NCBI GenBank assembly: GCA_951406725.2
Contig: OX597838.1
Span: forward strand, 19,096,001 to 19,160,000
DNA: 64,000 bases
Reading direction: 5' to 3'
From: Octopus vulgaris
Lineage: Eukaryota
The translations under genes and the position numbers were made by a program. A model generated the notes under the pieces. It worked only from the letters and a program-made list of their open reading frames with translations, was not told the origin of the DNA and made no database searches. This document shows, in pieces, positions 2,900-60,616 of this stretch. How positions within the stretch are numbered: the stretch's first letter is position 1; each line of letters starts with the position of its first letter.

Positions 2900-3950
2900 C
2901 TGTTTTGTCCTTCCGTACAAAAGTACCGTACCAGACATAATATTTCCAGTTAAACATTGTTCTTTTTTGACAATGCATCAAGCCACTCAGAGAAATTAGA
3001 TAAGCTTTCTAATAATGTGAGAATAGACTATATCTCTAAGAACACCGAATTTTGTTCCAAACATTAGATCACGGAGTGATGGCTAACTTCAAGATATACC
3101 ATCTGAGAAAAAGTTTCAAACCAGTTATGAAAGTAATTGACAGAAAAAGACAAAAAGCACCATCCGAATCGTGGCCGAAGCCAGTGCCGCCTCGACTGGC
3201 TTCCGTGCCGGTGGCAAGTAAAATGCACCAATCCGACCGTGGCCTCGCCTGGCACCTGTGCAGGTGGCGCGTAAAAAGCACCCACTACACTCACGGAGTG
3301 GTTGGCGTTAGGAAGGGCATCCAGCTGTAGAAACATTGCCAGATAACACTGGAGCCTGGTGCAGCCATCTGGCTTCCCAGATCCCCGGTCAAACCGTCCA
3401 ACCCATGCTAGCATGGAGAACGGACGTTAAACGATGATGATGATAAGCCTACACTAGGGGACTTCCGGAAGAAATTCAACATAATGTATGCTGTTGATAA
3501 CATAGCTGAGCCATAGGATGATGTGAAACCCTTATCTTTGGATGATTCTTGTAAAAAATATGTAGCCAGATGTATCCATGACTTTACAAGTTTCCACAAG
3601 CAGAAAGTTTACATCATATTTGGAAAGATATTACAACACTCACAAACAATGTCGGGTTTGAAGAGGTCATAGAAGATCAAGTGGTTGCATTGCTTGTGTG
3701 CTACACAGAAAAACTTATGAAACAAGGAACTGATGCCGTTAGAAAAAGAACAAGCTGAGAATGCAGATGATAACACGGAAATACCACCAACTCTACTTGA
3801 AACGACTGCAAGGAATATAGCTAACAGGTCGACACTTATAAAGAGGAAGGCCTGAAAGTATTTGCTGATAACAACGCTAATGATGAATGTAACATAAAAG
3901 TTACAAGGGGAGTTTACAATGAGCTCGCTTCCTATCCCAAGTTGTACAAA
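2900..3950 (+). pseudogene. pogo/Tigger-type DDE transposase relic interrupted by a family C repeat
   Basis: FDNASSH...FQTLDHGVMANFKIYHLRKSF, then after the insertion KPTLGDFRKKFNIMYAVDNIAEP*DDV; a degraded version of Tigger LDNAPGH / QPMDQGVIANFKAYY / FWKSFNI. Confidence 0.7.
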
Positions 3951-5407: not shown

Positions 5408-5870
5408 ACAAGTAGAAAGGTATATTTTTTCAACACGTAAATACTGATAGAACAGCATATATAGGATACAATCCTTACAGAGCAGAAAAATCTGTCAGCA
5501 ACCAGCCATGAGACTTGAACTCACATCCCTTCAATTTCCGGTCAAAGTGCTTTACCGTTTAAGCTAAACTGCTTTACTGACAAATTTTTCTGCAATTTAG
5601 AATTTATAAACTCGTCTGGAAACACTAGATAGAATAGAATAGAAATTACATCATATATAAACAAACACAAGTTTGTTCTATTCCATCTAGCGGGCTAGTG
5701 CTTTACCATCTAGCTTAAATGGTAAAGCACTTTGACCGGAAATTGAAGGGATGTGAGTTCAAGTCTCGTGGCTGGTTGCTGACAGATTTTTCTACTCTGT
5801 AAGGATTTTATCCCGTATATGCTGTTCTACCAGTACTTATGCACTGAAAAAAATAAAGCTTTCTACTTGT
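5408..5870. mobile_element. Foldback element with tRNA-like sequence in both arms
   Basis: 5408-5566 is the approximate reverse complement of 5711-5870. The arm contains an A-box-like TAGCTTAAATGG and a B-box-like GAGTTCAAGTC. Confidence 0.75.
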
Positions 5871-6169
5871 ACGACAATACATACCTACATATATATACAT
5901 ACATATGTGTGTGTGTGTGCGTGTAGGAAAATAATATGCGCTCACTTGGAATTACAAAGAATGTACTGACAAAAGTGAAATATGACAGAGAGAAAGTCGA
6001 ACAATAAGCCCATTATCAAGTAAGAAAGAAAGAACTAGAAACATTCAAACCTTGTTTGAAAGGCTTGAGCAGACAGGAAAACACAAAAAGTAAGAAACAA
6101 AAAAAAGCAAACACAGACATGGAGACATGGAGCAGTATATAAGAGTCACGTCCTCAACATGGCTAAAAG

Positions 6170-6582
6170 GATTTAGTGACCCTACATAAGGGCTTAGTGA
6201 CCCTACATAGAAGAGCTTAGTGACCCTATATAAGGGCTTAGTGGACCCTACATAGAAGAGCTTAGTGACCCTACATAAGGGCTTAGTGGACCCTACATAG
6301 AAGAGCTTAGTGACCCTACATAAGGGCTTAGTGACCCTATATAGAAGAGCTTAGTGGACCCTACATAAAAGGGGCTTAGTGACCCTACATAAAAAGGCTT
6401 GGTGACCCTACATAAAAGGGCTTGGTGGACCCTACAGAAAAGGGCTTAGTGGACCCTACAGAAAAGGGCTTAGTGGACCCTACAGAAAAGGGCTTAGTGG
6501 ACCCTACAGAAAAGGGCTTAGTGGACCCTACATAAAAGGGCTTAGTGACCCTACATAAAAGGGCTTAGTGGACCCTACATAA
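6170..6582. repeat. Minisatellite, 21-24-bp unit AGGGCTTAGTG(G)ACCCTACATA(A)
   Basis: About 18 directly visible units. Alternating variants at the left, a homogenised variant at the right. Confidence 0.95.
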
Positions 6583-50760: not shown

Positions 50761-51510
50761 TACCATAAATCCTCAAGTATAATCCGCATTTTTTCCCCAA
50801 AGTCAAAATCCCTAGTGCGTACTACATACAAGGTTAAAAATGAAAATTATCCGAGTCTCTATTTGTCCGGCAATGTTTATTCAGATGCATTTTGTGATGT
50901 CGGGTGCGAAATTACCTTAAGCTAAGCCTGAAAGCAAGGAAGTCATAAAAGAATCATCCATAACTTGCAGTAAACAACATTTATTAAATGTTATTACTTT
51001 CCTTTGCAAATACTGTTGGAGGAGGTGTCCTCCTGGGGCTATTCTTTATTTTCTGGAAACAAAATGCACAAAAAAATGCTACACGTTTGCATTATGCTAT
51101 ATATACATGGAAGGACGTGTTTACTTCTTGAGAGTGATTGCTCTTCTCACCTAGGTCCACAGGTAAGGTCTCTGCATTTCTTTCTTCCGTTTGCTTCTTT
51201 TTCTGTTGTCTTTTTTCCTCCATCGCACCACACATTGTCCCCTGATGAAAGTACAATCTTCCATGATGATAATACACTAATTCACATAGCTAATGTCATG
51301 CAAAATTGGTACAATTAGCTCAAAAATAAAGTAGACCACTTTGATTGGCTTACACTATCACTGGGTCTCAATGTAACTGAACACTCATGGTGCATTTTGG
51401 AGCAGCAAGTGGGGAGGCACTTCCATCCAAAATCATTGCTGAAAGAGCTCACAAAATTTATTTGAAGACTGGATCAAAATCCCCCTGCCAATCAGGACAT
51501 GTACAACTGA
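50761..51510 (+). mobile_element. DNA transposon relics: pogo-like TIR at 50761 and a Tc1-like catalytic fragment at 51225-51500
   Basis: TACCATAAATCCTCAAGTATAATCCGC terminus; IFHDDNTLIHIANVMQNW....HFDW...LGLNVTEHSWCILE is a decayed FQQDNAPIH / WPAQSPDLNPIEHLW. Confidence 0.6.
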
Positions 51511-51520
51511 ATTCCTTGAC

Positions 51521-53135
51521 ATGAGGTTGGCCCGAAAAGTGTATAAGCTGACTATGAAGGAGTGATGCTAGAGCTATGAAATCTTGCATGCATTAATTTC
51601 AGCCCTTCTTCTTAATAATTGCATTGTTTCTTTCCAGATAAACTGACATCTGACTGTTCAAAGAACACTTCAAAAGTATCTAGTAGCAGCTTGTCTTGAA
51701 AATCAACAAAATTTAGCATTGTGGTGTTATCAAGTACCTGCAGAAAAATGGGTTTAACCCCCAAGGACATTCATGCTGACATGGTTGCTATATTATGGGA
51801 TGACACACAAGCGTTACCAGCAGTGCAAAAGTGGGTAGCTGCATTTAGGAGGGGAACGGAGAACCTTGAGAATGACCCAACATCTGGATGTCTTACAACT
51901 GCCACCACTGAGGAAAATATTGATCTTGTTCACCACATGGTGATGGCTGATAGGCAATTGACTATAAATCAAATAGTCAATGCTATTAGCATGTCTTGTA
52001 GGAGAGTTGAGAATATTCTGCACAATGAACTTGACATGAGAAAGGTTTCTGCTCAGTGGGTGCCACATCTTCTGACACCTGATCAAAAGCACACCAGGCT
52101 GATTACATCAAGGGAAAATCTGACATTGTTTTAGGGAGATCCAGCTGGTTTTTCTTGAACCTTTCCTAACCCAGGATGAGTATTAGGTTCATCACTTTGA
52201 GCCAGAGACAAAGAGACAATCCATTCAATGGAAACATCCCTCCTCACCTGCTCCAAAGAAGGTCAAGGTCGTTTTATCTGCAGGGAAGGTAATGGTCTCA
52301 GATTTTGGGGATCCAAAAAACATTGTGTTTATTGATTATCTTCAAAAGGTCCTCGGTCATCATTGGTGAGTACTATACCAACTTGCTGAGGCAGTTATGA
52401 AAGGCTATCAAGACCAACTGCCCAGGAAAAACTGACAAAAGTGATCTTGTTTCATTAGGACAAAATACTTGATTTCAATGGCTGCTGTGTGTGACTGTGG
52501 CTTTGAACTGGTTGATCAGCCACCCCTATTCTCCTGATTTGGCCCCATCATCTGTTCCCCCCAACATGAAAAAACACTTGGCTGGAAACCAGTATTGCAG
52601 TGATGCTGTTACTCTTTTACTCTTTTACTTGTTTCAGTCATTTGACTGCGTCCATGCTGGAGCACCGCCTTTAGTCAAGCAAATTGACCCCGGGACTTAT
52701 TCTTTGTAAGCCCAGTACTTATTCTATCGGTCTCTTTTGCCGAACCGCTAAGTGACGGGGACGTAAACACACCAGCATCGGTTGTCAAGCAATGCTAGGG
52801 GGACAAACACAGACACACACACATATATATATATACATATATATGACAGGCTTCTTTCAGTTTCCGTCTACCAAATCCACTCACAAGGCATTGGTCGGCC
52901 CGGGGCTATAGCAGAAGACACTTGCCCAAGGTGCCACGCAGTGGGACTGAACCCGTAGTTTTTTTTTTTTACCAACAGGAACAAAAGTGTCTTCACCAAT
53001 GGGATCCAGGCACTGCAACACCAATGGAAGATGTGTGTGGACCACAAAGAGAAATATGTTGGAAAATAAATCTCATTTGGTCACATTCCATGAGAGTATC
53101 TTGGTCGGCCTATGAGGTTTTCAGCCAACCCATAT
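51521..53135 (+). mobile_element. Near full-length mariner element (decayed transposase), split by SINE A at 52610-52953
   Basis: ORF 51721-52134 has HTH domains and WVPHLL, followed by TQDE..VHHFEPETKRQS.QW, SAGKVM, HPYSPDLAPS and GIQAL...W..CV....YV. Degenerate TIRs GGTTGGC..GAAAA at both ends. Confidence 0.9.
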
Positions 53136-56425: not shown

Positions 56426-57213
56426 TATCATTATCATCATTTAACATCCATTTTCTATGTAGGCCTGTGTTGGGCTGGTGTAAAGCCAGGACCTGCACCA
56501 GGCTCCATTCTCTGTTCTGGCATGGTTTCTACAGCTGGATGCCCTTCCTAATGCCAATCACTCCATAGATTGTACAGGATGCTTTTTATATGGCACCAGC
56601 ACTGGTCTCAATTCTGCTGTGGCGAATGTACCTTCTTGAGTCCAACAAGGTGCCATATATCTTGGTCCTTTGTCATATCCTTCCTAAGGCCCATTGTCTT
56701 GAGATTGGCCTTCATTACTTCGTACCATGTCATCTTGGGTCTCTCTCTACCACACGTTCTATCCACTTTAAGTGATTACCATCCAATCATGGCTGTTGCC
56801 AGCCTCGCCTGGCCCCCATGCTGGTGGCATGTAAAAAGCACCATCCAATCGTGGCCGTTTGCCAGCCTCATCTGGCACCTGTGCCGGTGGCACGTAAAAA
56901 GCACCCACTACACTCACGGAGTGGTTGGCGTTAGGAAGGGCATCCAGCTGTAGAAATACTGCCAGATCAGACTGGGCCTGGTGCAGCCTTCTGGCTTCTC
57001 AGACCCCAGTTGAACTGTCCAACCCATGCTAGCATGGAAAGCGGACGCCAAATGATGATGATGATGATGATGATGTATGCAACTTGTGATATCTACACAC
57101 GTTTGTGGGAGGGAAACTGGAGCCTAGTTATTGCCAATCAAAATTTTCCACACCAACACAGCTGCCTCTCATGCACACTAAAGCTTATTCCCCTACATTA
57201 TTTACATTGGACG

Positions 57214-59722
57214 GATATTTGTCCCCATCTTGTTTGTTGTTACCACAACCGTTTCAGCTGATTTGCTCTCCAGCCTTCATCAGGTGTCAGATATTTGTCC
57301 TCATCTTGTTTGTTGTTAACACAACCGTTTCAGCTGATTTGCTCTCCAGCCTTCATCAGGTGTCAGATATTTGTCCTCATCTTGTTTGTTGTTACCACAA
57401 CCGTTTCAGCTGATTTACTCTCCAGCCTTCATCATGTGTTAGATATTTGTCCTCATCTTGTTTGTTGTTACCACAACCGTTTCAGCTGATTTGCTCTCCA
57501 GCCTTCATCAGGTGTCAGATATTTGTCCTCATCTTGTTTGTTGTTACCACAACCGTTTCAGCTGATTTGCTCTCCAGCCTTCATCATGTGTTAGATATCT
57601 GTCCTCATCTTGTTTGTTGTTACCACAACCGTTTCAGCTGATTTGCTCTCCAGCCTTCATCAGGTGTCAGATATCTGTCCTCATCTTGTTTGTTGTTACC
57701 ACAACCGTTTCAGCTGATTTGCTCTCCAGCCTTCATCATGTGTCAGATATCTGTCCTCATCTTGTTTGTTATTACCACAACCGTTTCAGCTGATTTGCTC
57801 TCCAGCCTTCATCATGTGTTAGATATTTGTCCTCATCTTGTTTGTTATTACCACAACCGTTTCAGCTGATTTGCTCTCCAGCCTTCATCATGTGTCAGAT
57901 ATCTGTCCTCATCTTGTTTGTTATTACCACAACCGTTTCAGCTGATTTGCTCTCCAGCCTTCATCATGTGTCAGATATCTGTCCTCATCTTGTTTGTTAT
58001 TACCACAACCGTTTCAGCTGATTTGCTCTCCAGCCTTCATCAGGTGTCAGATATCTGTCCTCATCTTGTTTGTTATTACCACAACCGTTTCAGCTGATTT
58101 GCTCTCCAGCCTTCATCATGTGTCAGATATCTGTCCTCATCTTGTTTGTTATTACCACAACCGTTTCAGCTGATTTGCTCTCCAGCCTTCATCATGTGTC
58201 AGATATCTGTCCTCATCTTGTTTGTTATTACCACAACCGTTTCAGCTGATTTGCTCTCCAGCCTTCATCATGTGTCAGATATCTGTCCTCATCTTGTTTG
58301 TTATTACCACAACCGTTTCAGCTGATTTGCTCTCCAGCCTTCATCATGTGTCAGATATCTGTCCTCATCTTGTTTGTTATTACCACAACCGTTTCAGCTG
58401 ATTTGCTCTCCAGCCTTCATCAGGTGTCAGATATCTGTCCTCATCTTGTTTGTTATTACCACAACCGTTTCAGCTGATTTGCTCTCCAGCCTTCATCATG
58501 TGTCAGATATCTGTCCTCATCTTGTTTGTTATTACCACAACCTGTTTCAGCTGATTTGCTCTCCAGCCTTCATCATGTGTCAGATATCTGTCCTCATCTT
58601 GTTTGTTATTACCACAACCGTTTCAGCTGATTTGCTCTCCAGCCTTCATCATGTGTCAGATATCTGTCCTCATCTTGTTTGTTGTTACCACAACCGTTTC
58701 AGCTGATTTGCTCTCCAGCCTTCATCAGGTGTCAGATATCTGTCCTCATCTTGTTTGTTGTTACCACAACCGTTTCAGCTGATTTGCTCTCCAGCCTTCA
58801 TCATGTGTCAGATATCTGTCCTCATCTTGTTTGTTATTACCACAACCGTTTCAGCTGATTTGCTCTCCAGCCTTCATCAGGTGTCAGATATCTGTCCTCA
58901 TCTTGTTTGTTATTACCACAACCGTTTCAGCTGATTTGCTCTCCAGCCTTCATCATGTGTCAGATATCTGTCCTCATCTTGTTTGTTATTACCACAACCG
59001 TTTCAGCTGATTTGCTCTCCAGCCTTCATCATGTGTCAGATATCTGTCCTCATCTTGTTTGTTGTTACCACAACCGTTTCAGCTGATTTGCTCTCCAGCC
59101 TTCATCATGTGTCAGATATCTGTCCTCATCTTGTTTGTTATTACCACAACCGTTTCAGCTGATTTGCTCTCCAGCCTTCATCATGTGTCAGATATTTGTC
59201 CTCATCTTGTTTGTTGTTACCACAACCGTTTCAGCTGATTTGCTCTCCAGCCTTCATCATGTGTCAGATATCTGTCCTCATCTTGTTTGTTGTTACCACA
59301 ACCGTTTCAGCTGATTTGCTCTCCAGCCTTCATCATGTGTTAGATATCTGTCCTCATCTTGTTTGTTGTTACCACAACCGTTTCAGCTGATTTGCTCTCC
59401 AGCCTTCATCATGTGTCAGATATCTGTCCTCATCTTGTTTGTTATTACCACAACCGTTTCAGCTGATTTGCTCTCCAGCCTTCAACAGGTGTCAGATATT
59501 TGTCCTCATCTTGTTTGTTGTTACCACAACCGTTTCAGCTGATTTGCTCTCCAGCCTTCATCAGGTGTTAGATATTTGTCCTCATCTTGTTTGTTGTTAA
59601 CACAACCGTTTCAGCTGATTTGCTCTCCAGCCTTCATCATGTGTCAGATATTTGTCCTCATCTTGTTTGTTGTTACCACAACCGTTTCAGCTGATTTGCT
59701 CTCCAGCCTTCATCAGGTGTCA
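57214..59722 (-). repeat. Tandem array of 33 x 76-bp units, each a minimal hammerhead-ribozyme-like motif
   Basis: Unit on the minus strand: UGACAC-(C/A)UGAUGA-AGGCUG-GAGAGCAAAU-CAGCU-GAAA-CGG-UU-GUGGU(A)ACAACAAACAAGAUGAGGACAAAUAUC. Period 76 (57214, 57290 ... 59723), with one 1-nt insertion near 58542. Confidence 0.95.
57290..57365 (-). ncRNA. Best-preserved minimal type-I hammerhead ribozyme unit of the array
   Basis: Intact CUGAUGA and GAAA; stem I GACAC/GUGUU; stem II GGCUG/CAGCU; GUU cleavage triplet. Activity untested. Confidence 0.6.
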
Positions 59723-59990
59723 GATATTTGTCTTCATCTTGTTTGTTGTTAACATGTTTTTGCTGGTATACCCTCCAGCCTTCCTCAGGTGTCTTGGGGA
59801 AATTTCGAGCTTGGGTTCTCATTCCTAACATCAAAAACTACCTCAGGAATGAGAACCCAGGTTCAAAATTTCCTCAAGACACCTGATGAAGGCTGGAGGG
59901 TATATCAGCCAAAACGTTGTGTTAACAACAAACAAGATGAGGACAAATATCCATCAAATGTAAATAATGTACATAATTCCTCATCTCTTA
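59723..59990. mobile_element. Inverted (foldback) pair of Penelope-like terminal repeats with degenerate hammerheads
   Basis: 59723-59826 is the approximate reverse complement of 59845-59950. The right arm reads GACAC CTGATGA AGGCTG..CAGCC aAAA CG TT GTGTT, the Penelope minimal HHR layout with G12>A. The right-arm end (ccatcaaatgtaaataatgta) is complementary to 57193-57213 at the far left of the array. Confidence 0.8.
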
Positions 59991-60616
59991 AATATAAAAT
60001 TGTAGGTAACAAGCATATAAAAAGAAAATTTATACATAAATTTGATTGGTTCGCGTTTTAGCCACTGCTGGGTAGTGTGTTTAATTTGTTCACTGAGCAC
60101 CACCGCAAATACCCCTTGTTTTTCAAAAATCCCCCCTAAATCATAAAATAAAGGGGGAAAATTTGTCCTTTTTTTAAAATCCTGGCAGCAACACTGTAGC
60201 TGGAAGCAGGATAATAATCTAATTCTACACTTTATCACATTCAAGAATATGAACACGTTTTTAAGTACAGCACACATGGAGTCAAAAAGAAACACGACCA
60301 GGGTCAGTACTGCGTGAATGACAGCGCTCTCTCTCCCTAGCATGCAGCTTCCTATCTCAGACATGTGAGCAAGAGCACAACAGCCAAACACCGTGTTGCT
60401 GGATCTGTGAAATGCACAATTCTGTACAAGGATTTTTGTATTTTTTTCACAAACTAGGGTATGGCTTCTGTCATTAAGCTTAAGGATCATATAATGTACA
60501 AGTATAAAGAAAGAGTTAAAGTAAAAAGGGCTCATTATATTGAATGTTATCGATAATATAAAGTGGAAATAGTGGGTGCTGCAGTTCTGCAGTGCCTATA
60601 CATGAGCCGCCTCTGC

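Follow-up and report, generated by a model that had tools for sequence, protein, structure and literature searches.

Is the tandem array of small hammerhead ribozymes at this octopus locus a mobile, ultra-small retrozyme that is cut into short RNAs, or a minisatellite that has grown in place? We have considered this question in a window of 64,000 nucleotides, i.e., the whole stretch of DNA that was analysed, and in searches of the genome (2.8 Gb, 227 contigs). The array lies on the minus strand at 57213..59721 and consists of 33 units, of which 32 have 76 nt and one has 77 nt. TRF gives a period of 76, 33.4 copies and 97% matches, and the units differ from each other by 2.1 bases on average. 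Each unit combines a minimal type-I hammerhead with ~29 nt of the 3' body of a parent family, in the order stem I, core, an extra A, a 5-bp stem II, GAAA, a very short helix III and GUU. The hammerhead assignment rests on the minimal-hammerhead descriptor given in the accessible text of PMC4209133; the Rfam hammerhead models match neither the array nor a family copy, even with E values up to 10. A loose hammerhead descriptor is matched by 7 of 200,000 shuffled 76-mers, and the exact pattern of the intact family ribozyme has at least 2,361 matches in the genome (at least, since diverged copies escape exact patterns), compared with 0 for the reversed control. This bears out what an earlier note on this DNA had stated about a tandem array of 33 units with a 76-nt period and a hammerhead-type layout beyond chance, and by its derivation the unit is indeed a minimal hammerhead of the Penelope type. 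Overall, we consider it about 80% probable that the array is a DNA-level minisatellite within one dead insertion of a dispersed non-coding retroposon, with the ribozyme as a neutrally decaying passenger, and not a mobile ultra-small retrozyme.

The insertion that holds the array can be read as one inverted pair, whose plus arm (59827-60002) carries a tail and whose minus arm (59828-57194) does not. The plus arm, at 59827..60002 (+), is a 5'-truncated copy of subfamily A without head; its hammerhead at 59878-59923 has a G12->A change at 59911. The tail of ~30 nt at 59972..60002 (+) is found on this arm only, which is a Penelope-type insertion mark according to the accessible parts of PMC8557442 and PMC11167929. 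The minus arm reaches the inversion point (59827-59828) with a 5'-truncated body that has no tRNA-like head (59794..59828, minus strand). It is followed by unit 0 (59722..59793, minus strand), a degenerate hammerhead copy of subfamily A which has lost GAAA and the cut triplet and joins unit 1 via an array-type junction. At the far end, the parent's normal 3' end without the optional tail is found at 57194..57212 (-), bearing a mark of subfamily B. That is, the array sits within the minus arm between unit 0 and the normal 3' end, and both arms are without the promoter-bearing head of the family. Among 174 distinct copies, 8 belong to subfamily B and the other 166 to the common type A; the 3' mark at the array end is present in 7 of the 8 B copies and in 0 of the 166 A copies, while unit 0 and the plus arm are of type A. 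As two subfamilies meet in the minus arm, the seed of the array would have arisen where two different templates became joined at a short microhomology. The adjacent parental copies to which the earlier note had compared the units do exist, but they are themselves broken and of another subfamily than the array unit.

For the subsequent growth, the variants within the array are informative. With five variable columns, the four-gamete test is positive in 7 of 10 column pairs. In addition, both ends of the array keep ancestral states while the middle is derived, and C3A is among the derived states. The four-gamete violations and the gradient from ends to middle point to slippage, unequal exchange or conversion, rather than to one pass round an RNA circle. 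We can thus propose a course of events in four steps. A parent of the anatomy seen here would have been copied in trans by a Penelope-like reverse transcriptase/endonuclease. It would have been inserted as a 5'-truncated inverted pair, in the minus arm of which a subfamily-B 3' end was joined to a subfamily-A copy at the microhomology, and a template switch or a nested insertion may have left a 76-bp direct repeat. This repeat would then have grown at the DNA level by slippage, unequal exchange or gene conversion, the processes to which the variant pattern points. Finally, the ribozyme would be a passenger: by sequence, it was already weakened in the founder, and C3A has since spread across the array middle, so that little or no n x 76-nt RNA would be made from the array.

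Pattern searches have found six other long arrays derived from the parent family, each at a single locus with its own period and junction, and the periods range from 33 to 215 bp. On C25, a 33-bp unit is repeated 21 times (G000:C25:33647220-33647920; L167:920-1620); it holds only core, stem II and GAAA, an enzyme strand without cut site, and a paired cut site is absent in 20 of 20 scored. On C28, 25.6 copies of a 46-bp unit (G000:C28:27710566-27711743; L233:367-1544) have no core, and the unit begins exactly at the base after the cut site. The cut site is present in 0 of 13 scored in an array of 83 bp x 15 on C7, GAAA is present in 0 of 4 in one of 85/102 bp x about 5 on C24, and a paired cut site is found in 0 of 9 scored in one of about 215 bp x 8.5 on C2. 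The remaining one, on C7 (87 bp x 17; G000:C7:11043065-11044467, L170), has core and GAAA intact in 17 of 17 units, the exact ACGU palindrome in many and a stem II mismatch in most, and 2 of its 17 units are fully family-like; judged from its sequence, residual cleavage would be more plausible here than in the array of the window. Several dimers and one trimer of family pieces have also been found. Four or five of the six sister arrays are thus predicted to be unable to self-cleave, one of the six having no core at all. Since non-cleaving units form arrays too, array formation appears to be independent of cleavage, and competence is not enriched in arrays.

All seven long arrays, including the one in the window, lie directly behind an inversion point, compared with 22/40 and 19/30 of sampled copies (55-63%; post hoc p about 0.015-0.04). 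This indicates that, probably, either insertion itself gives rise to the seed or the hairpin promotes it. The same observation would suit another scenario, in which the array was written at once by a reverse transcriptase rolling round a 76-nt circle, or by repeated template jumps at insertion, and decayed later. The start of the 46-bp sister array exactly behind the cut site agrees with it, as does the insertion of Penelope elements as partial tandems (described in the available portion of PMC8557442). On the other hand, variants common to non-adjacent units, the four-gamete violations and the ends-to-middle gradient need later exchange between units, and arrays without cut site cannot derive from circles made by a ribozyme. 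Prompted by the start of the 46-bp array, truncations at the cut site have been searched for, giving 772 matches against 23 at a control position. Actually, of 30 inspected matches, 28 are internal deletions around the cut triplet or retain the upstream ribozyme, and 2 are true truncations; 3 further non-AAC matches comprise 2 truncations and 1 deletion. A piling up of truncations at the cut site has accordingly been dismissed, there being no clear enrichment. Overall, we regard writing of the array in one go as unlikely, though it fares best among the alternatives. A separate observation from these matches is a 3-nt deletion of the cut triplet with roughly 700 exact matches genome-wide (L240-L269). 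Among 9 inverted pairs, 5 have it on a single arm, and this recurrent deletion could be slippage or the footprint of a reverse transcriptase jumping across cleaved RNA.

Returning to the DNA-level minisatellite, the state of the ribozyme in its units is that of a decaying sequence. It had been stated that each unit reads CUGAUGA, which is wrong: the core is CTGATGA in 10 of the 33 units, ATGATGA (C3A) in 22 and CTGTTGA (a change at A6) in one, so that it is dead in 23. By established hammerhead chemistry, C3A is expected to abolish cleavage like C3G. In the accessible text of PMC11167929, C3 pairs with G8, and C3G abolishes a Penelope hammerhead. The features of a minimal hammerhead (CUGANGA core, extra base after A9, GAAA and NUH) occur together in 10 of the 33 units, and all 33 retain a site of GUU type together with three or more pairs in stem I. 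The family majority also has G10.1-C11.1, a palindromic helix III and a stem I of 4-5 bp, from which the array units depart. As the earlier note had rightly pointed out, stem II is closed by a G-U pair (G10.1-U11.1, 33/33 units) and the helix III segment is lengthened and non-palindromic throughout, ACGGU in 32 units and, with a further A, ACAGGU in one. Stem I has 3 contiguous pairs in 31 units and 5 in the other two. None of the 33 units is fully family-like, compared with 7 of 35 dispersed copies. The sole adjacent pair of units with intact cores is found at 57213..57364 (-); core, GAAA and cut triplet are present in both units, and the predicted cut sites are after 57323 and 57247.

Tandem copies could pair as double hammerheads in principle, as had been suggested. 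Since in a double hammerhead the core of a unit acts on the site of its partner, the 10 intact units could cut their neighbours, including C3A units, and ACGGU can pair with itself around one G-G mismatch. In predicted structures of four array dimers, the double-hammerhead fold has energies from -3.8 to -8.5 kcal/mol, against minimum free energies (MFE) of -25 to -28 kcal/mol. For the family majority set in tandem, it reaches -18.7 against an MFE of -33.1 kcal/mol, i.e., ~14 kcal/mol above the MFE. In the dimer of units 32-33, the MFE structure pairs an inter-unit 8-nt palindrome which was created by the C11.1 change. These energies serve for ranking only, as the fold models omit tertiary contacts and protein help, and they may understate the activity, since Penelope hammerheads can need protein help (accessible part of PMC11167929). 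Slow cleavage of the intact pair 57213-57364 in vitro would be possible, if on balance doubtful, and processing of array RNA in vivo would be improbable.

As for mobility, the junction pattern of the array has 31 matches in the genome, and 31 of 31 are inside the array (exact pattern, one assembly). The array-type 15-mer of the ribozyme gives 33 matches, 32 in the array and 1 in unrelated sequence, compared with 6 for a control. Within the limits of exact patterns, which diverged copies would escape, the array appears to have no dispersed offspring in the assembly. A genome search for the unit elsewhere had been named beforehand as one that might refute the retrozyme, and it has found the array to be unique to this locus. 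Non-LTR retrozymes are recognised by monomers dispersed at several loci and by a core conserved in all or most units; here there is one locus, and the core is intact in 10/33. The working rule of a 2026 preprint (bioRxiv 10.64898/2026.07.22.740005), as stated in its accessible part, asks for at least two consecutive complete type-I hammerheads, which is exactly what 57213-57364 contains. Applied to the array, this rule, energy filter aside, would probably count it among the retrozymes.

The proposal of the earlier note was that a minus-strand transcript could be cut by double hammerheads to n x 76-nt RNAs or circles, and such an active or recent ultra-small non-LTR retrozyme would be re-inserted by a Penelope enzyme. 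The tandem layout with 10 intact cores and one adjacent intact pair is in line with this, and Penelope-type open frames with reverse transcriptase (RT) and GIY-YIG do exist in the genome. Moreover, minimal hammerheads, which cleave poorly, show low cleavage as dimers and trimers in the available part of PMC4209133. In the 2026 preprint, however, cleavage failed in 8 of 9 predicted retrozyme dimers. There is no second locus, two thirds of the units carry the core-killing C3A, and the array is enclosed between the ends of a common type of family insertion, which has neither head nor internal promoter. Sister arrays have formed from non-cleaving pieces, and 76 nt falls inside the reported size range. 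Taken together, the proposal is not supported and is very unlikely in our view.

The array is seen whole in one assembly only, and no contig satisfies the 31-letter bridging rule at its junction. Two DNA runs from two studies (the source sample may have supplied one of them) do have contigs that cross the array junction with 0 differences, extending by 23-32 letters to one side and by 26 to the other, which speaks against an assembly artefact, short of proof. The flank 57080-57187 has no cover in any of 4 sequencing runs. Two runs presumed to be RNA yield contigs with matches to family sequence; these contigs carry no strand information, and none of those listed crosses the array junction. With an ordered mosaic of variants along the units, the junction-crossing contigs and a motif far above chance set against the single assembly and the bridging rule, an assembly artefact or a chance resemblance to hammerheads is the least credible of all the explanations.

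The array does not qualify as an autonomous Penelope-like element, which would have an RT plus GIY-YIG open frame beside its pLTR: no Pfam family is found in the 27 scanned of the window's 59 open frames of at least 100 aa, and full family copies span only about 300 nt. Elsewhere in the window, a weak tRNA-like match (32.1 bits) at 5500-5573 (-) is probably a pseudogene or a SINE head, and a minisatellite of 24 bp x 18 is located at 6164-6582. At about 51500-52500 (+), the translation reads like a broken remnant, which we take to be of a mariner-like transposase.

The parent is more interesting than the array, for it joins a head that resembles a tRNA to a tiny ribozyme and bears insertion marks of the Penelope type. 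Its full copies, read from head to tail, have about 300 nt, comprising the head, an (AAT)n tract, a body with the minimal hammerhead and an optional 30-nt tail, without any RT/endonuclease frame. In its majority motif, the core is conserved, one additional base stands between positions 9 and 10.1, and G10.1-C11.1, the palindrome ACGU and a 5-bp stem I are present. A dimer query of the genome gave 1,647 candidates, and among the 40 scored, those outside the array are nearly all monomers. The majority sequence of 27 heads carries pol III A and B boxes. Compared with 25 distinct tRNA sequences of the animal itself (six amino acids), the head matches two tRNA-Arg best (z 9.5 and 8.7); ARAGORN finds no tRNA in 10 family loci, and the Rfam tRNA model does not match the family heads or copies. 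There are 813 exact head matches in the genome. Among the first 30 of these, a hammerhead follows the head within 900 bp in 20 cases, and an inverted family arm precedes it in 19. Conversely, among 40 ribozyme-anchored loci on one contig, the head is present in 17 and an inverted arm in 22. Nearly all inverted pairs bear the 30-nt tail on just one of their arms, namely 21 of 22 in the ribozyme-anchored sample and 13 of 14 in the head-anchored one, the two samples overlapping by at least 3 loci. Judged by these sequences, the parent is a tRNA-Arg-headed, SINE-like element, whose head and body travel together as a short, non-coding, high-copy unit.

According to PMC8557442 and PMC11167929, Penelope-like insertions are recognised by a 5'-truncated arm in inverted orientation and by a tail of 30-40 bp at one end. 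The parent shows both the inverted arm and the one-arm tail, which suggests that it probably owes its mobility to a Penelope-like enzyme. The usual partners of SINEs are LINEs. We lean slightly towards regarding the parent as a Penelope-dependent SINE, predicted to be transcribed by pol III and mobilised in trans by a Penelope-like enzyme and not by a LINE. Its insertions would repeatedly seed hammerhead minisatellites, a snapshot of the birth of non-LTR retrozymes in which most are dead on arrival and the window's array possibly still cleaves slowly. The 3' body and tail of the family have no match in 30 GIY-YIG loci compared, taken from 150 scored of 6,136 candidates, and an abundant family with a 781-aa RT/GIY-YIG frame shows no family-type end in the 4 loci read.

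Some observations were made beside these searches. A young family at L081-L084 (e.g. G000:C16:20836744-20839086) has an intact 781-aa frame with RT and GIY-YIG, an upstream open frame and downstream 92-bp repeats, and no matching hammerhead was found for it. Another type-I hammerhead, unlike that of the parent family, looks canonical and has a long helix III; it is located beside an inverted repeat at L062:about 2950-3025 (minus strand; G000:C16 near 33.687 Mb). In L035, L041 and L129, and in L154 and L161, two other repeats replace the head directly upstream of (AAT)n, possibly microsatellite-targeting elements that inserted there.

The array is of a known kind: it is real, confined to a single locus and largely dead. 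Alone it matters little, apart from the caution that two intact hammerheads do not by themselves make a tandem repeat a retrozyme. The seven arrays, with their internal control, support the idea that retrozyme-like repeats start as local DNA amplification of Penelope-type ends, for which cleavage is unneeded. If the reading of the parent is true, a tRNA-headed element with thousands of copies and Penelope-type ends would offer a short substrate, provided by nature, with which to study the recognition by Penelope enzymes, and would also let one ask why such elements keep a ribozyme that is dispensable for insertion in vitro.

Ohshima and Okada reportedly described tRNA-derived octopus SINEs in 1994, said to be named OR1/OR2 and to be of tRNA-Arg origin. 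The parent shares the tRNA-Arg-like head with them, going by the description of those families, and it may be one of these families, for which the literature found reports no hammerhead or Penelope-type ends. In the open literature, i.e., outside subscription journals, Repbase and preprint supplements, we have found no description of a hammerhead-bearing or Penelope-mobilised SINE in cephalopods, and the word ribozyme is absent from the accessible text of an octopus repeat annotation of 2026 (PMC13282606).

With the minimal hammerheads of Penelope pLTRs, as far as PMC4209133 and PMC11167929 describe them in their accessible parts, the parent shares the core, the extra base, G10.1-C11.1, the ACGU palindrome and the 5-bp stem I. 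Its copies are likewise single or in close pairs on opposite strands, with an optional tail of 30-40 nt. In contrast, the parent lacks an RT/endonuclease frame and begins with a tRNA-like head, and in the array G10.1-C11.1 and the exact palindrome are gone and stem I is shortened. Like Sm-alpha/Sj-alpha of Schistosoma (PMC6765202), the parent is a short non-coding retroposon in which a hammerhead lies downstream of a promoter of the pol III type. Those elements, however, carry canonical ribozymes that cleave efficiently, and they propagate in tandem, whereas the parent is mostly a monomer or inverted pair with Penelope-type ends and a minimal ribozyme. The pDo500 satellite of Dolichopoda also has a hammerhead per unit; it is under selection, with C3 changed in 4 of 198 sequences in the available part of PMC2837043, while C3A is the majority state in the array.

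The animal non-LTR retrozymes provide the last comparison. "Ultra-small" has been discarded as a novelty of the array, since tandem hammerhead repeats of 51-972 bp with a maximum of 300 units appear in the accessible part of the 2026 preprint. Expressed retrozymes are dispersed and have about 170-400 nt, according to the accessible text of PMC7229834. The array shares with the animal non-LTR retrozymes, so far as the sources present them, a tandem type-I hammerhead unit from a Penelope-type terminal sequence, a copy number (33 units) below the maximum, and growth as the preprint proposes, namely local amplification of one such terminal sequence followed by unequal crossover. Known from its sequence, it differs from them in its single locus, in its minimal instead of canonical ribozyme and in the dead core of 23/33 units. 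Short of conservation and mobility, the array would by analogy resemble the first stage of a non-LTR retrozyme in the preprint's model.
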